Origin: an uncultured bacterium
Lineage (GTDB): Bacteria; Patescibacteriota; Minisyncoccia; UBA6257; GWB1-50-10
Direction of reading: 5' to 3'
DNA: 64,000 bases
NCBI GenBank assembly: GCA_903827975.1
Contig: CAIKKG010000027.1
Span: forward strand, 5,403 to 69,402
Shown: piece after piece, positions 1,454 through 60,406 of the stretch
How positions within the stretch are numbered: the stretch's first letter is position 1
How the letters are laid out: each line of letters begins with the position of its first letter
Notes under the pieces: generated by a model
The model's input: only the letters and a program-made list of their open reading frames with translations
Told to the model about the DNA's origin: nothing
Databases searched by the model: none
Program-made: the position numbers and the translations under genes

Positions 1454-1936
1454 ATGGACGCCAAAAAGATGAGGGACTCAATTTCAGCCGACGCTGATGC
1501 GTTGGTCGAAAAAATAAGAGCTTATTCACGAGCTCAAAAGGATTTATGGCAACTTGTTCCATGGCTTTCTTTACACGCATACGCGGGTATAGGGCGATCT
1601 GATGAGAAGGAATATGAAACCGCATTTCGAAATGGCGTGTGGATGATACACGCATCAATGAAGCCAGGACTTTTTGGTAGTTATATTATTGGTATTGATT
1701 GCGCAACAGGAGAGCCATGCAAAGGAACCCATTATTCTGAATTGGCTGATAGTGCCGAAATTTTGAAATGTGCACCATTCATTGAAGAGTTTGATGCTTT
1801 CGAAATTGTTTCACGGTTGAATGAAGAACATGTTTTATATCTTTCGCGTAATGGAGGAAAGAGAGAGCAGTTTTGTATTCAGACGGCCGATAGAATTGGA
1901 CTAAAGGAAGTGTTTACACGCAATGAAAAAAAATGA
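1454..1936 (+). CDS. hypothetical protein, paralog 1 of a tandem pair
   Basis: ORF with RBS. Shares the motifs VE.IRAYS..QK.LWQ.VP.L and (I/V)DCATG with the next gene. Confidence 0.6.
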   Translation: MDAKKMRDSISADADALVEKIRAYSRAQKDLWQLVPWLSLHAYAGIGRSDEKEYETAFRNGVWMIHASMKPGLFGSYIIGIDCATGEPCKGTHYSELADSAEILKCAPFIEEFDAFEIVSRLNEEHVLYLSRNGGKREQFCIQTADRIGLKEVFTRNEKK

Positions 1937-15645: not shown

Positions 15646-15812
15646 AAATCCCATAAATGGGGATTTCTTGGAGCGGGTAAGGGGAATCTCCTTCGCCTCT
15701 CAACTCGTCGTCACTCATCTCGGGCTAGGCACCGCCTCACTGTGTGCACTACTGAGTGCACACAGTTCCGGCGTCCGATTCCCCTAAGCAAAATCCCCAT
15801 AAATGGGGATTT
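15646..15812 (-). repeat. tRNA-Gly-associated 3' module, core family 2 (copy D)
   Basis: Reading 5' to 3' on the minus strand, downstream of the tRNA: terminator 15812-15790, inverted T-arm copy (plus 15774-15785, tccgattcccct), core 15773-15691, direct repeat 15690-15668 (gattccccttacccgctccaag) and a duplicated terminator 15667-15646. Confidence 0.6.
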
Positions 15813-27731: not shown

Positions 27732-29003
27732 ATGCATAACAAAAAGAAAATACAAATAATAGTAGCTTTAATTTTTGTAGCGCTTATGCTCGGCGTAAGT
27801 GCTGCACGCGCAGGATTTTTTAATAATGCGTCGTATTTAATTAAGGGCCTTTTAACAAAAGATATTAATATAGGTAGGGAGCTTGGCATCTCTTCTGGTG
27901 ACAAGACAATCTCTGCGCCTTTATATAAGCCCGCACTTGATTATGAGGAGGCGGTCGTGAGTGCTGTAGAAGGTGCATCACCATCTGTGGTTTCAATTGT
28001 AATTACAAAGGACGTGCCACTTTTAGAAAACTGCACATATGATCCGTTTGCTGATATGCCATCAGACATTAGAAGTATGTTTGGTAGTGGTACACAGTTT
28101 TCTCGTCCATGTGAGAGCACCACTCAAAAAGAAACTAAAGAGATTGGAGGTGGTTCAGGATTTATTGTTTCTACGGACGGATTAATTTTGACCAATAAAC
28201 ATGTTGTGTCTGACACAAAGGCGGACTATACCGTCTTCACAAGTAATGGGAAAAAATATTCTGCAAAAGTTTTAGCACGCGACACAACGAATGATATTGC
28301 GCTTATTAAAATTGAGGCCACCGGACTTAAAGCGGCTACGCTTGGAAATTCTGATTCAATAAAATTGGGGCAGACCGCAATTGTAATTGGTAATGCACTT
28401 GGAGAATTTCGCAATACAGTTTCTACTGGTGTAATCTCAGGACTTTCGAGAAATGTTACCGCTGGCGGTGCATCATTTGGAAGCGAGACCATCTCTGGAG
28501 TTATTCAGACGGATGCTGCAATTAACCCTGGAAATTCTGGTGGCCCACTTCTGAACCTCCGCGGTGAGGTGATAGGTATGAATACTGCGATGGCGGATGG
28601 TGCTCAGAACATAGGTTTTGCAATTCCAATTAACCAGGCAAAACGCGCTATTGAATCTGTAAAGAAAACTGGAAGTATAAAAAATCCATATATAGGTGTT
28701 CGATATATGTTGCTTAATGAGGAGACAGCGAAAAAGCAAAAACTCTCACTAAACGAGGGTGCATTAGTTCGTGGTACATCAGACGGTCCTGCGATAGTTA
28801 AGGGCTCTCCAGCTGATAAGGCGGGCATACAGGCTGAGGACATTATTATGGCTGTAAACGATGACGCAATAACAGCAGAAAAAACAGTCACTCAGATTTT
28901 GCAAAAATACGGCGTAGGAGATCTAATCACATTAAAAATTAAACGAGGGGAGAATATTATTTATCTCTCTCTTAAGTTAGAAGAGAGACCAGAGTCGTTG
29001 TAG
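27732..29003 (+). CDS. htrA: HtrA/DegP-family serine protease with PDZ domain
   Basis: GSGFIVSTDGLILTNKHVV (His), D, GNSGGPLLN (Ser) triad. C-terminal PDZ. Confidence 0.85.
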   Translation: MHNKKKIQIIVALIFVALMLGVSAARAGFFNNASYLIKGLLTKDINIGRELGISSGDKTISAPLYKPALDYEEAVVSAVEGASPSVVSIVITKDVPLLENCTYDPFADMPSDIRSMFGSGTQFSRPCESTTQKETKEIGGGSGFIVSTDGLILTNKHVVSDTKADYTVFTSNGKKYSAKVLARDTTNDIALIKIEATGLKAATLGNSDSIKLGQTAIVIGNALGEFRNTVSTGVISGLSRNVTAGGASFGSETISGVIQTDAAINPGNSGGPLLNLRGEVIGMNTAMADGAQNIGFAIPINQAKRAIESVKKTGSIKNPYIGVRYMLLNEETAKKQKLSLNEGALVRGTSDGPAIVKGSPADKAGIQAEDIIMAVNDDAITAEKTVTQILQKYGVGDLITLKIKRGENIIYLSLKLEERPESL

Positions 29004-29189
29004 AGGTTAAAAAATAAAAAGCCCCACACATTGTGTGGGGCTTCGTTGCCGGCGCGCGTTCAGTTTCCGGTAAGACAGACCAGTCTGGTGCGCGGGCGAC
29101 TTAAAACAAATCAAAAAGACCTGAGACGAGTCTAACACACTTATATTTTGTGTCAATAAAAAAGCCCCGCATTATAGCGGGGCTTGGGC

Positions 29190-29530
29190 TTAGCTCGTGA
29201 TCGGCACAGGTCTATGACGCCTGGGGTGGAGGGGATGGCAACGTATGTCGCCGGCGGTTTCCCGTCCTATGGCGTGTAACCAGTGCGGACCAACGAGCGG
29301 CCCATCAGGCAGTGGGGCTGCGAGCTCGAAAGCTCATAGTAACCCTACCTTTCTGTTGCGTCTCGGACTCGGCCTGACGCTCAGTGCGCGCTCGTACGCT
29401 CTCGGCGTTGAGGGGCGCTGTTTCATGGGTCCACGGGCGAAGGTCGCCTCGGGCGTTTGCCGGGGTCAGATGACCGCGACAGTTCCTGGTCGATTTCGCC
29501 ATTCGGCGGTAACCGCTATTGGGTGAACTA
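29190..29530 (-). ncRNA. GC-rich (about 60% GC) non-coding island, candidate structured RNA, unassigned. Contains a divergent family-2 core copy
   Basis: GC is far above the local roughly 38%. No credible ORF. A minus-strand terminator lies at 29160-29190 (gcccaagccccgctataatgcggggcttttttatt). The minus strand carries caacgccgagagcgtacgag...gaaaggtagggtt, resembling gaacgccggagcgtatcacg...gagaggttagggc at 19056-19143. Confidence 0.3.
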
Positions 29531-29592
29531 AAAATATATTAGCACATATATAAAAAATGTCAATGCTAGTATCTCTGTTGGCTTTTTAGTGT

Positions 29593-30729
29593 TTGGTAAT
29601 GCAAAATAAGTGTATGTTATATCTTCGCATTATTTTATTTCTCATTCCCGCACTTCTAATATTTTTTGGAGGACACTATGCGCTATATTTTTCAGTGGTT
29701 CGGTTTTTCAGTATTACTAATTCCACTTACAAATTTATTTTTGCGGGCGTTCTGGCATTTTTAGCAGTAAGTTTTTTCACTTCATCTATTCTTGCGCGAT
29801 TTAGCGAGAACACGTTTACTAGAATTCTTTATTTTCTCTCGGCGTCCTGGCTCGGACTTCTTGTAAATCTACTTCTTGCATGTGGGTTTGTAGCGATAGT
29901 GCTCTTGATTGCGCGTATTGTTGGTTTTTCAATTAATGGTGTATTACTCGCTTCTGTTTTTTTCATCATCGCTTTTTTCTTTTCACTTTATGGAGTTTGG
30001 AATGCTATGAATCCTCAGGTAAAGGAGGTCTCTGTAGCAATTCCAAATCTGCCCGAAGAATGGAAGGGGAAGAAGGTTGTTCAATTATCGGACGTGCATC
30101 TTGGAATTGTGCATCGTGAGGATTTTATGCGCGACATAGTTACCAAGATTGAAGCGGTAAATCCAAACATGGTTGTTATCACTGGCGATCTTTTTGATGG
30201 AATGGATGGAGATGTCACACCCCTTGTCCGTCCACTTTTAGATCTTAAGCCAAGTAATGGGATGTACTTCATTACTGGAAATCACGAAACATATCTTGGC
30301 GTTGATGACGCCCTATTAGCACTTAGTAAGACGAACGTAAAAGTTCTTAAGAATGAGGTCGTTGATGTTAACGGATTGAAGCTTATAGGAATTAACTATC
30401 CTACCCTTGATGAGAATGAAAACGTTTCGACAATATTAGACTCATTAAAAGAAAAATATTTTGGAATGCCAAATATTCTTCTATATCACGCACCAACATC
30501 GATTGCTGAGATAAAAGCGCGAGGTGTTAATCTTCAGTTGTCGGGCCACACGCACAAAGGCCAGCTCTTCCCATTTGGATATATCACAAAGCTTATCTAT
30601 AAGGGATATGATTACGGATTATTCACTGAAGGGAATTATTCTCTATATACTACAAACGGAGTTGGTACGTGGGGTCCTCCAATGAGAACTGGTAATACTC
30701 CCGAGATTGTTGTTATAACTCTTAAGTAG
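29593..30729 (+). CDS. membrane-anchored calcineurin-like metallophosphoesterase
   Basis: Motifs DVHLG, GDLFDG, GNHE, GHTHKG. About 4 N-terminal TM helices. Confidence 0.7.
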   Translation: MVMQNKCMLYLRIILFLIPALLIFFGGHYALYFSVVRFFSITNSTYKFIFAGVLAFLAVSFFTSSILARFSENTFTRILYFLSASWLGLLVNLLLACGFVAIVLLIARIVGFSINGVLLASVFFIIAFFFSLYGVWNAMNPQVKEVSVAIPNLPEEWKGKKVVQLSDVHLGIVHREDFMRDIVTKIEAVNPNMVVITGDLFDGMDGDVTPLVRPLLDLKPSNGMYFITGNHETYLGVDDALLALSKTNVKVLKNEVVDVNGLKLIGINYPTLDENENVSTILDSLKEKYFGMPNILLYHAPTSIAEIKARGVNLQLSGHTHKGQLFPFGYITKLIYKGYDYGLFTEGNYSLYTTNGVGTWGPPMRTGNTPEIVVITLK

Positions 30730-35706: not shown

Positions 35707-38700
35707 ATGAGTAAAATTACAATTAAATTCGCAACAGTTGGTATTGCTATCGCAACGGTAGCATCACTTTCTGGCCCAGTATTTGCTCAATCAGCTGATT
35801 TAAATGCCCAGATCGCAGCCCTTATGGCCCAGATCGCAGCATTACAGTCACAGGTTGGCGCACAGAGCTCATCAACATCTTCATACAATTTTGCTAAGAA
35901 CCTCACTCTTGGCTCAACTGGTGCAGACGTTAAAGCTTTACAGGGTGTTTTGATCGCAGGTGGATATTTAAAGATTGCTGCTCCTACAACAACATTTGGT
36001 CCTTTGACCAAGGCTGCTGTAATCGCATGGCAGAAGGCAGTAGGTATTTCACCTACTTCTGGCATGGTAGGACCTCTTAGCCGTGCTAAGTTGAACGCAA
36101 TGGGTGGAACAACGAGTGGAACAACAGGTGGAACAACAGTAGTTGTACCATCAGGAACAGGCCTCGTAGTTTCAAAAGCTTCTGATAGCCCATCAGACAG
36201 AACAATCGGTTCTGGAACAGCATTTAACCCAGCATTGAAGGTAGCCCTTTCTGCTGGTGCTTCAGCTGTTAAGGTCACTGGCCTCACAGTCTTTAAGAGC
36301 GGATTCCTCGCGAATTCCAGCCTTAATGGCGTTGATGTCGTTGATTCAAAGGGAGTTCGTCATGGCAACGTAATCACTTCAGTAGGAGCGGATAATACAA
36401 TTAACCTAATCTTCTCAAGTGATCCAGTAGTAATCGCAGCAGGTTCATCCGAGACATTGACTGTCAGGTTTAACCTCGTAAGCGGTGCTATGACTGGAAC
36501 AGTTGTTATGTCATTGCAGTCAGTTGCAAGCGTTTCTACCGATGCAAAATCAGTTTCTGGTGCCTTCCCAATTACGGGTAGCATTGCAAACGTTGTTGCA
36601 GGTTCAAATGCTCTCGCAACTGTCACTTTGGACGTCTTGACCTCAACGGGTTCATCAACATTAAATGTTGACCCAGCGAGCCAGCAGGAAATCACAAAGT
36701 TCCGCATTCAGGAGACGAGCTCGAACGAGGCTGTAAAGCTTTATTCTTGGACTCTCTATAACTACGGAAATGCAGGAGCAACAGACTATAGCGATGTGAA
36801 GCTCGTTGCCCAGAACGGCGACGTGCTCGCAACAGCTCAGGCTGTTGGCCAGAACATCAAATTCGATCTTTCAGCAAACCCTTACTTTATTGACAAGGGA
36901 CAGACGAAAGATTTCACCGTAACGGCGAAATTGATCAATGGAACAACAAAGACGGTTCAGCTCGTAACCTACAATGATTATGATTTGGATATTCGTGGCG
37001 TTGCTACGTCTGTCTCTCTCATGCCAGGAGCAGGTTCAACTGACACGTCATTCCCAATTGGTAATGGATTTAACATCCAGACGATTGGTTCAGGTTCACT
37101 TACTCTTAGCCGCTCAACAGATACACCGAGCGCAGCAGTAACTCCTGGAACAAACGATACGGTTCTCGCAAAATATGTTGTGAAACCAACTGGAGAGAAC
37201 TATGAACTCCGTCAGGTAAGCTTCTACATCTCAAGGGTGACGACAGCTCTTACCGGAACGGTTTACGTGAAAGTAAATGACCAGACTGTATACAGTGTTG
37301 CGGCATCAGGTGTCTCATCAACTGGAGCAAGCACGGTCACACTTTCTTCATATCCTATCTTGACGTCTGGCGTGAACAACACCATCACGGTGTCTGCTTC
37401 AGTCAACTCAAGTGCGGTATCTACAGATGTTTACACGGTGAAGTCATTTGACCTCATCCAGGCAAAGAGGTTGGTAACAAACGACCTCGTTGACCCAGGA
37501 ACTTCAGCCATCGACGGTCTTGGGATCGCGGTACAGGCTGCTAAGCTCACGGTCACGAACCTCTCAACACCGTCTGCACAGTCGGTTGTTAAGGGAACCT
37601 CAGCATTTGAGTTCGCTCAGGTGCAGTTGAGTGCACAGGGTGGCGGCGAGGATATTAAGGTCTCTAAAGTTGTAATCACAGATACAAGCGCGGTACCAAC
37701 CGACTTGACCAATGTCGTGATCTACAAGGATGGAGAAACATCTCCTCTCGTAACCTCAGCATCAACAGCAAACTTCAGCGCAGGAAAGGTATCATTCAAC
37801 TTCCAGAGCCCAGTATTGGTAACGCGCACGACCCCGGTTGTGCTCCATGTTAAGGCTGATGTCGGAACATCTGCTTCAACAACGCCAACACATGTACTTT
37901 CTGTTGTAACATCATCAACTGATGTCACAGCATACGGTTCAGCAACTGGAAACACGGTTTCCGGTGGAAGCCTAGTCTTGGCTGGAAGCAGTCAGACAAT
38001 GGGTGTTGCAGCAGCTGGTACTCTCACTCTCTCACTCGTTTCTGGTTCTGGCGCAACGCCAGCACAGGATCAGGTGGTAACAGCGGGAACATCTGGCGCA
38101 ACATATCTTGCATTTAAGCTCACATCACAGATCGAAGCCCAGAAGATTACATCTTTGAAGGTTACGGCTGCTGGTGCTGCTCTCTCAACAACGACATTGA
38201 GGAACATCGCCCTTTATCAGGACAATGCCTCAGTACCGTTTTCGTCAGCAGGACAGTGGGATTCTTGCAATGGAACAACAACTTGCACAGTCACATTCAC
38301 AGCGACGGATAACTTGCTCGCGGCACCAGTGCCAACAACAGGTGCAAACATCTATGTGAAGGCTGATGTACCAGCAGGAGGTCAGGGTGTGACACTTGGT
38401 GACAGCTTCAAGCTTTCGATTGCGGCAAATACCGACATCGTAACAAAGGGAGCAGTCTCAGCAGCAACAACAACAGCAACGGGAACAGCAGTACCGACAG
38501 CAATGTCGTACGTCGCTCCTCAGAGCGTTGTAGTTGATGCAGTCTCACCTACCTCAGCAACACAGGTCGGATTGTCATCTGGACAGGTTGTTGGAATCTT
38601 TAAGATCACCAACAATGGTACAGCTCCAATCTACCTTGCAAGTACAACCGATGTATCTAAGCAGTTCACCATTTCAAATGGTGGTGCAGCAACAACAAGC

Positions 38701-59779: not shown

Positions 59780-60316
59780 ATGAACGGGAATAAAACATCC
59801 ACTGTAATGGCACTCGCACTTTCGAAGGCGGGCGTGAACGAAACAAAAAACACGTTCGTGAAGGTTGCGGACGTTCGAATCGCAGTTCCAACGAGCTGGA
59901 ATCACGGAACCGTGATTTCCGAGTTCAGCAAGGAATTCAGGAGCCAGGCCTTCAAGGTCGACAAGGATATCACCGATAGCCTGATCTCCACTCAGGGCTT
60001 CGTCCCTGGTCGCCAGTACAGGATGAGGCTGTTCAGTCACAACTCTGCCAGCATGGCATCCTGTCTCGAATTCCTCGAGTCTCAGGGCGCACTTCTGGTG
60101 GGTGCTCATGGCCTGGTGGCTGCAGCAATGCTGAAGCCCTACGAGCTGGTCATCAAGACCGGCAAGGAGGTCTTCTCGCTCGCCGAGCTTAAGGTCCTGC
60201 CGGTCTACGAGGATGGGACCCCGATGGTCCCCATCATGACCCGAGGCTTCTTCGGCCTCGTGCCGATCGACGCCATCTCGAGCGAGCATCTCATGCTCTG
60301 CGTCACCACAAAGTGA
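59780..60316 (+). CDS. hypothetical protein encoded by a high-GC (about 58%) segment, likely horizontally acquired
   Basis: Clean 178-aa ORF, RBS gggagg, terminator at 60335-60363. Codon third positions are G/C-rich, unlike neighbouring genes. Confidence 0.55.
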   Translation: MNGNKTSTVMALALSKAGVNETKNTFVKVADVRIAVPTSWNHGTVISEFSKEFRSQAFKVDKDITDSLISTQGFVPGRQYRMRLFSHNSASMASCLEFLESQGALLVGAHGLVAAAMLKPYELVIKTGKEVFSLAELKVLPVYEDGTPMVPIMTRGFFGLVPIDAISSEHLMLCVTTK

Positions 60317-60406
60317 CTCAGAGTGCAAAATACCGAGCCCCATTAATTTGGGGCTCTTTTTTATTTATTTATTTGACGAGAAAAATGTATGGGGTAAACT
60401 TTATGA

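Follow-up and report, generated by a model that had tools for sequence, protein, structure and literature searches.

A GC-rich island between htrA and a metallophosphoesterase gene of an uncultured Patescibacteria genome very probably carries a minus-strand gene for a structured RNA

A 64,000-nucleotide (nt) stretch of the genome of an uncultured patescibacterium (contig CAIKKG010000027.1 of assembly GCA_903827975.1, positions 5,403 to 69,402; the window in the following) holds a GC-rich island between htrA and a metallophosphoesterase gene, which is very probably a real structured RNA gene on the minus strand. In the reading we favour, held with somewhat less assurance, the island, termed Unit A, is a gene in its own right and encodes a highly base-paired, GC-rich RNA of about 370 nt that acts as RNA. 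A second small RNA gene, Unit B, lies directly behind it on the same strand. The island bears the general marks of an independent structured non-coding RNA gene, namely a promoter and a terminator on one strand that are kept in relatives, and compensatory base-pair changes beyond those of controls. Units A and B form a new RNA family, whose members are known to date from a few Paceibacteria/Jorgensenbacteria-like Patescibacteria only.

The island is the strongest GC anomaly of the window. Its GC content is 0.625–0.635 across 29200-29499 in 200-nt windows and reaches 0.667 across 29145-29548 in 150-nt windows, while the mean of the whole window is 0.402. A sequence-only reading of this DNA had described this jump over the background and had taken it, as usual for GC-rich islands in AT-rich genomes, as a mark of structured RNA; both points hold. 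The same reading saw no convincing open reading frame (ORF) in the island, and ours agrees. The 93-aa plus-strand ORF finds no match in Pfam or PHROG, and it is unrelated to the plus-strand ORF that a gene caller places in the homologous island of one relative (L090); neither contains a domain. The plus-strand ORFs were rejected as real genes, as they are not conserved and carry no domains.

A consensus scan of the locus finds promoters and terminators on the minus strand only. The Unit A promoter, which the sequence-only reading did not contain, scores 10 of 12 plus the TG of the extended -10 element. We placed the 5' end of the transcript about 7 nt past the -10 element and its 3' end at the U-run of terminator T_A, both inferred positions. 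The minimum free energy (MFE) of Unit A has a z-score of -2.9 on the minus strand and of -2.5 on the plus strand. The strong minus-strand terminator that had been proposed at 29160-29190 is recovered as the T_A hairpin at 29185-29162, and the terminator-plus-promoter junction of this type is homologous in L085. The hairpin at 29019-29045 had been assigned to htrA. We find it at 29018-29044, where it scores solely as a minus-strand terminator. Since its T-run is on the minus strand, it is the terminator of Unit B (T_B) and not that of htrA. Its sequence GCCCCACRCAAUNUGUGGGGC is kept in relatives.

The HtrA and phosphoesterase proteins match database entries labelled Jorgensenbacteria or Paceibacterota. 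The HtrA proteins of GTDB representative genomes are at most 51% identical to that of the window and thus too distant, and neither an island homolog nor a GC island was found with blastn and nhmmer at the equivalent site of 80 GTDB htrA loci. Closer relatives were obtained from Logan and ENA contigs through their HtrA (68–72% identity) and phosphoesterase (62–71%). The resulting set consists of L085, L086 (identical to L087 and L094), L096, L090 (close to L095), L093 and L091. Five further contigs (L001-L004 and L092) come from the same species; they are 97.7–99.6% identical over the island and add little information. The comparison with orthologous intergenic regions, which had been proposed together with the sequence-only reading, yielded homologs in seven species-level relatives. 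In L085, L086, L090, L093 and L096 a homolog of the island occupies the interval from htrA to the metallophosphoesterase gene, and L091 has a version with Unit B only. All six loci contain a GC-rich minus-strand unit with a terminator at this site, and the promoter of each consists of a perfect TTGACA, a 16–17 nt spacer and a TAnnnT -10 element, so that the -35 box is perfect in seven lineages. The GC content of the RNA in the relatives is 0.57–0.62, against 0.40–0.51 for the whole locus. L088 and L089, whose HtrA is 65% identical, have neither the island nor the phosphoesterase gene at the syntenic site.

The arrangement of the two units varies between these lineages. In the window and in L085 the order is Unit A, terminator, promoter, Unit B. 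In L086, L096, L090 and L093 there is one continuous transcript of 460–560 nt, of which Unit B is the 3' end. L091 has a 180-nt Unit B-like RNA alone. In a further contig, L098, a 215-nt Unit A homolog stands alone (1620-1850, minus strand) downstream of the phosphoesterase gene and on the opposite strand, with a promoter-like TTGATA..TGcTAAAAA and a terminator of its own; upstream of the phosphoesterase gene just 73 nt of this contig are available. Among close relatives the length of the RNA runs from 215 to about 650 nt. Because the units occur in tandem, fused, or each alone, Units A and B are two separable RNA genes, usually in tandem.

The pattern of base changes indicates that selection acts on the RNA fold and probably not on an encoded protein. 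The conserved core of Unit A is hairpin H2, which all seven lineages with a Unit A possess. This hairpin consists of 4 + 4 base pairs flanking a central C mismatch and is followed by an NAAC tail. In an alignment of six lineages all 48 cells of the helix are paired, and five of the eight pairs have changed on both sides. None of 500 shuffles was as good, and sliding the partners left 23–50% paired. Five cells of H2 are G-U pairs, which would be A-C mismatches if read on the plus strand, and the functional strand is therefore the minus strand. When this 33-nt element was turned into a covariance model (R2) and searched against 777 kb, all seven members came up and no other sequence did. Its match in the window is at 29451-29483 (expect value, E, 5e-6), and L093 was recovered at E 8e-5 though left out of the model building. 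An RNAalifold consensus of L085, L086 and L096 contains 66 predicted pairs within their central 300 nt. These are 93.4% paired, compared with 34–43% when slid, and 10 compensatory pairs are counted, compared with 0–2 when slid and 3.6 +/- 1.4 in shuffles. A second covariance model (R1), made from this central region, recovers L090 at E 1.5e-4 and L093 at E 1e-3.

In addition, hairpins anchored by conserved flanks carry entirely different stems across lineages. At the position of H1 a hairpin is also present in L090 and L093 (GGC/GCC), in L096 and in L086 (CUCCU/AGGAG), the last being read from sequence and fold, as a motif-pattern search missed it. The stems equivalent to H3 are CCCCG/CGGGG in L086, CCCCA/UGGGG in L096, GCAGC/GCUGC in L090 and L093, and CAUCGAC/GUUGAUG in L098, and each is followed by GGAGCC or GGACCC. 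A further anchored example is the pair of 11–12 bp stems GCUCUCGGAGCG/CGCUCCGAGAGC and GUGCCGGAGCC/GGCUCCGGCAC. Downstream of H3 a purine tract resembling a Shine-Dalgarno (SD) sequence precedes a start codon, AUG2, which is followed by a hairpin AGCU-UUCG-AGCU (29334-29323) and a C-rich tract. In MFE folds the purine tract pairs with the C-rich tract. The 3' half of Unit A is alignable with L085 only, for example ACGCCAUAGGACGGGAAAC with ACGCCGUAGGGCGUAAGAC.

Unit B shows the same behaviour. It is conserved in six other lineages, with nhmmer E values of 2e-7 to 6e-6 across relatives. Its stems differ among the window, the L090 type, L085 and L091, while the loop core CUGUC[U/A]U is kept, on CGGC/GCCG in L085 and on CCGCG/CGCGG in L091. 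Among 98 loci (841 kb), a hairpin with the Unit B loop on the same strand and at the same site occurs in family members only; the looser pattern CUGUCNU also fits five unrelated stems in other loci of this set. A scan of JGI (Joint Genome Institute) metagenomes for the Unit B hairpin plus terminator returned the same species only. The features of the locus are collected in Table 1. The flanking genes are htrA (27732-29003, plus strand) and the metallophosphoesterase gene (29593-30729, plus strand), and both units are antisense to them, convergent with htrA and divergent from the metallophosphoesterase gene.

Table 1. Predicted features of the RNA locus, in window coordinates
Feature	Position	Strand	Description
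Unit A promoter	29563-29536	-	TTGACA, 16-nt spacer, extended -10 TGcTAATAT; near-consensus sigma-70
Unit A transcript	29157..29529	-	~370 nt, ~65% GC; the island; lies between its promoter and T_A
Hairpin H1	29497..29508	-	CGCC-GAAU-GGCG, between conserved flanks GCGGUUA and AAAUCGACC
Hairpin H2	29459..29480	-	GUCG-C-GGUC [AUCU] GACC-C-CGGC, then AAACGCC; conserved core of Unit A
Hairpin H3	29426..29448	-	GGCGA-CCU-UCGCC, then conserved unpaired motif GGACCCA
Mini-ORF1	29334..29426	-	30 codons, without a good SD; its UGA stop and AUG2 share an AUGA (read from sequence)
Purine tract and mini-ORF2	29305..29352	-	purine tract AAAGGUAGGG (SD-like); AUG2 at 29337-29335
Long imperfect hairpin, 3' half of Unit A	29191..29304	-	MFE fold
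Terminator T_A	29156..29185 (hairpin 29185-29162)	-	intrinsic; 9-bp GC-rich stem + U6
Unit B promoter	29156-29129	-	TTGACA, 16-nt spacer, TGtTAGACT; directly after T_A
Unit B transcript	29010..29122	-	~110 nt; second, separable small RNA
Unit B stacked helices	29053..29094	-	three: CGCGC/GCGCG, CAG/CUG, CUGG/CCGG
Unit B apical loop	29079-29071	-	UCUGUCUUA; invariant 9 nt; AAAC bulge follows
Terminator T_B	29009..29044 (hairpin 29044-29018)	-	12-bp stem + U-run; 15 nt past htrA stop codon

Several points weigh against the reading of the island as an RNA gene that acts as RNA. Transcription, strand and transcript ends are deduced from sequence signals. The covariance model R1 misses the Unit A of the window itself (E>10), and the central part of the window RNA has therefore diverged beyond detection. 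The homology of the window Unit A rests on H2, on short 5' blocks, on nhmmer, on synteny and on its likeness to L085: its 5' blocks are common to L090 and L086, its split architecture and 3' half are common to L085, and nhmmer matches it to L098 at E 0.007. Only seven species-level lineages are available, several of them close together, which leaves few independent covariation events, and the structures put to the test came out of the very sequences that they were tested on. Neither a partner nor a target of Units A and B was identified, and a search of the window for the complement of the Unit B loop gave no informative target matches. Finally, the conserved SD-like tract with an AUG at a spacing suited to initiation is only partly explained by structure and hints at translation. 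So do the indels between AUG2 and the CGNGCUCG block, which are multiples of three, and the AUGA overlap of ORF1 and ORF2 in the window.

These last hints lead to the alternative that Unit A acts through one or two tiny basic peptides (19–30 aa from ORF1, 10–60 aa from ORF2), either as a small and highly structured mRNA or as an RNA with a dual function; we consider this rather unlikely. All seven lineages have AGGAGG or AGGUAGG, an AUG 5–9 nt later and then a hairpin, and five of them (L085, L086, L096, L090, L093) have a second SD-AUG module upstream. When counted as AAGGAG(G), a 5–7 nt spacer and AUG, the module occurs twice in these five and once in the window and L098. Indels notwithstanding, AUG2 and a CG(N)GCUCG(N) block share one frame in every lineage, a motif R-x-R-[SG]-P-[PT] is common to the window, L098, L090 and L093, and between L090 and L093 a stop codon changed into another stop codon (UGA to UAA). 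In the window mini-ORF2 has 10 codons (MSFRARSPTA). However, the peptide lengths spread over 10–60 aa, and in L086 an in-frame stop stands ahead of the conserved 3' part. Indels of 20 nt and 1 nt shift a conserved nucleotide block into different frames in L090 and L093. Counted by codon position (1/2/3), the ORF1 differences between L086 and L096 are 2/4/3, a distribution unlike that of coding sequence, and the mini-ORF1 peptide is not conserved in relatives. Apparent synonymous changes are halves of helix-compensating pairs with non-synonymous partner changes, such as GCCGAU/AUCGGC to GCUGAU/AUCAGC, or UCC..GGG/GGA, which corresponds to GCC..GGC. The ORF1 AUG is ACA in L098, and ORF1 of the window has no SD. 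The 48-aa frame that a gene caller places on the L098 homolog hits a stop codon in the window. A codon usage of about 65% GC would also be foreign to a 40% GC genome. The conservation of the purine tract may itself be partly structural, given its predicted pairing with the C-rich tract. We take the constraint to be on the RNA, and regard translation of a mini-ORF as possible.

Four other ideas on the function of Unit A and its relatives were dropped during the analysis. A tRNA-like 3' end (ACCGCCACCA) in L090 and L093 is not conserved in L086 and L085. For an arginine-rich peptide of the lambda-N type with a boxB hairpin, the loops are not conserved. For a CsrB-like GGA sponge there are two purine tracts only, and for a toxin of the hok/sok type the peptides are not hydrophobic.

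That the island is an inert, horizontally acquired GC-rich fragment or a decayed foreign gene, with fortuitous matches to promoters and terminators, is very unlikely. The window does contain another GC-rich and probably foreign segment, the 178-aa ORF described below. But at least six lineages, with flanking proteins that share only 62–72% identity, keep the island at one site, synonymous divergence among the island-bearing lineages is saturated, and its GC content stays 9–17 points above the surrounding locus. The perfect -35 boxes and the helices maintained by compensatory changes would not be expected of such a fragment. The island has no match in phage records, in viral contigs (three IMG/VR scans) or, for the frames tested, in protein domains. 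A BLAST search against plasmids gave only two chance matches of 30–45 nt around the T_A terminator (query 351-396).

Regarding other GC-rich segments, the only island of the window comparable to that of Unit A, at 59962-60360, is a protein ORF of 178 aa (59780-60316, plus strand) with a GC content of about 60% and its own terminator. It has nothing above the Pfam cut-off (DUF1293, E 0.04) and matches a single-stranded DNA-binding family of PHROG at E 0.007. It is probably a foreign gene. A broad, moderate rise in GC (0.45–0.52, relative to its surroundings) is also seen at 36000-38700.

The sequence-only reading had proposed that the island is the parent, or a copy not linked to a tRNA, of mobile GC-rich modules elsewhere in the window, which it called family 2. 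This now appears most improbable. The two modules (19016-19175, plus strand, and 15659-15808, minus strand) are about 110 nt long and homologous to each other (E 1e-13). They share a covarying inner hairpin and have no Rfam match. On one side each is flanked by the terminator of a tRNA gene, tRNA-Phe for the first and tRNA-Gly for the second, and on the other by a duplicate of the 3' end of that tRNA with its terminator; the two look like miniature tRNA-targeting insertions. To be noted, the tRNA-Phe(GAA) gene at 18687-18982 (plus strand) has its anticodon loop split by a 223-nt group I intron (RF00028, 70.3 bits). It is missed by ARAGORN in its default mode and found with the intron option. 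The sequence strings quoted in the earlier comparison are present at the positions given there, but the alignment of the island to the tRNA-Phe and tRNA-Gly cores is at or near chance level. One core (19040-19150) aligns to the minus strand of the island with a local score of 17, against 10.4 +/- 1.7 in shuffles, of which 1 in 300 got as high. For the second core 78 of 300 shuffles did so, which is not significant. One of four local alignments is marginal and the rest are at chance. The block that aligns (AACGCCGAGAGCGUA...) is not conserved in the island's own homologs. Furthermore, blastn of the island against the window gives no match at the modules, a hidden Markov model (HMM) of the RNA family has no match elsewhere in the window at E<=100, an HMM of the cores has no significant match in any family member, and R2 does not match the cores. 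No tRNA 3' end is duplicated at the island (29.0-29.6 kb), which stands about 8 kb from the closest tRNA. The island and the modules are thus alike in being GC-rich and hairpin-rich, but the modules are a separate family tied to duplicated tRNA 3' ends, with no link to the island by profile or structure model.

A housekeeping RNA (RNase P RNA, transfer-messenger RNA (tmRNA), signal recognition particle (SRP) RNA or 6S RNA) too divergent for the Rfam models would resemble the island in its size range and in its GC enrichment over an AT-rich genome. Nevertheless, this identity is extremely unlikely. The Rfam scan suggested by the sequence-only reading was run and returned no housekeeping RNA: Rfam 15 has no match for the island when the whole window is searched at gathering score, only chance-level terminator-like matches in 28900-29750 at E<10, and no match in the six homologous loci at E<0.5, nor in L098. 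That reading had found no convincing match to RNase P RNA, tmRNA or SRP RNA by eye, and we come to the same view from Rfam 15, ARAGORN and inspection. A P4 helix of RNase P RNA would be made by CR-I (GGAAAGUCCGG) and CR-V/CR-IV (ACAGAANNNGGCUUA) near the ends, while in the island ACAGAAAGG lies in the middle of the molecule, with no complementary CR-I strand. A tmRNA would have a tRNA-like domain with acceptor stem, T-arm and CCA end, together with a tag reading frame; inspection of the island shows no T-loop of the GGUUCGA type, no T-arm and no CCA end, and ARAGORN reports no tmRNA anywhere in the window. The SRP domain IV motif, a hairpin with a GNRA tetraloop and conserved symmetric and asymmetric loops, is absent; the apical loop of Unit B is the 9-nt UCUGUCUUA. 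6S RNA folds into one long hairpin of about 180 nt that opens into a large central bubble, and the MFE folds here contain multiple hairpins in RNAs of 215 to about 650 nt. Such a variable length among close relatives, the patchy distribution with absence from the syntenic site of a relative with 65% identical HtrA, and the separate occurrence of the two units in L098 and L091 are all difficult to reconcile with a housekeeping role.

Equally implausible is a plus-strand cis-regulatory leader (a riboswitch-like 5' untranslated region) of the metallophosphoesterase gene. The island is directly upstream of this gene and its plus strand folds well (z -2.5), but there is no plus-strand promoter upstream of it, the G-U pairs of conserved helices become A-C mismatches on the plus strand, the L098 homolog is downstream of the phosphoesterase gene on the opposite strand, and in every lineage it is the minus strand that promoter and terminator enclose.

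Returning to Unit A as an RNA that acts as RNA, it would be a riboregulator or a factor-binding RNA. In a tentative model, which we regard as possible at best, a rigid hairpin scaffold would display conserved unpaired or conditionally paired elements: H2 with its C mismatch and NAAC tail, the GGASCCA motif, and the SD-like purine tract with its AUG, which could pair with the downstream C-rich tract. The trans-acting partner bound by these elements would be, for example, an mRNA, a protein that binds RNA or the 30S subunit. Unit B would be a classical small RNA seeded by its UCUGUCUUA loop, and the terminator-promoter cassette between the units would allow joint or separate expression. A broader proposal, more doubtful still, is that Units A and B are the founding examples of a class of very GC-rich, structured RNAs of 0.2–0.65 kb that is specific to Patescibacteria. 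Through conserved SD-like/AUG modules framed by hairpins, such RNAs would make contact with the translation machinery or with a regulator that binds RNA, with Unit B fused to them or split off by a terminator-promoter cassette. They might serve as a sponge for 30S subunits or a protein, or be gated by translation of a non-conserved mini-ORF.

The closest known parallels are orphan GC-rich structured non-coding RNAs found in long GC-rich intergenic regions of AT-rich bacteria (GC-IGR/DIMPL type), such as raiA, ROOL, GOLLD, OLE and HEARO (PMC6429828, PMC8632094, PMC11109978). The island resembles them in its high GC content against an AT-rich genome, in having a promoter and a terminator to itself, in its many hairpins with compensatory changes and in the lack of a conserved ORF. 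In contrast, its family matches none of them in Rfam 15 and is far narrower, with seven species-level lineages in one Patescibacteria clade and RNAs of 215 to about 650 nt. A different comparison is offered by dual-function small RNAs, for example RNAIII/hld of Staphylococcus aureus, SgrS/SgrT of Escherichia coli and SR1/SR1P of Bacillus subtilis. They share with the island a structured RNA of 0.2–0.5 kb with a strong promoter, a terminator and a short ORF preceded by an SD, as well as conserved hairpin loops as possible pairing seeds. There is no sequence or structural homology to them, however, and the island peptides are not conserved and their translation is putative. Small RNAs derived from 3' ends, with or without an internal promoter, are known from the DapZ, MicL and CpxQ types. 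Unit B is similar to these in that it forms the 3' end of a long transcript in L086, L096, L090 and L093, and in that it has a promoter to itself, placed immediately behind an internal terminator, in the window and L085. It differs in that the upstream part is not a normal protein-coding mRNA and in that Unit B also occurs alone, in L091.

Patescibacteria are ultra-small episymbionts with reduced genomes. A literature search on non-coding RNAs of this group, also called the Candidate Phyla Radiation (CPR), returned nothing specific, and to our knowledge almost nothing is known about its regulatory and structural RNAs. Holding 0.5 kb of non-coding DNA at 60–65% GC against AT-biased mutation implies a real selective cost and a benefit. 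The locus is a well-delimited candidate RNA gene pair with clear promoters, terminators and covarying helices. Its evolution is unusual in that the two units are fused, split or alone depending on the lineage. It could seed covariance-model searches over CPR genomes and metatranscriptomes. If the SD-like modules bind neither ribosomes nor a global regulator, the family would be one more orphan small RNA of narrow distribution. If they do, it would represent a new element of post-transcriptional control in a lineage that mostly lacks the classical chaperones.

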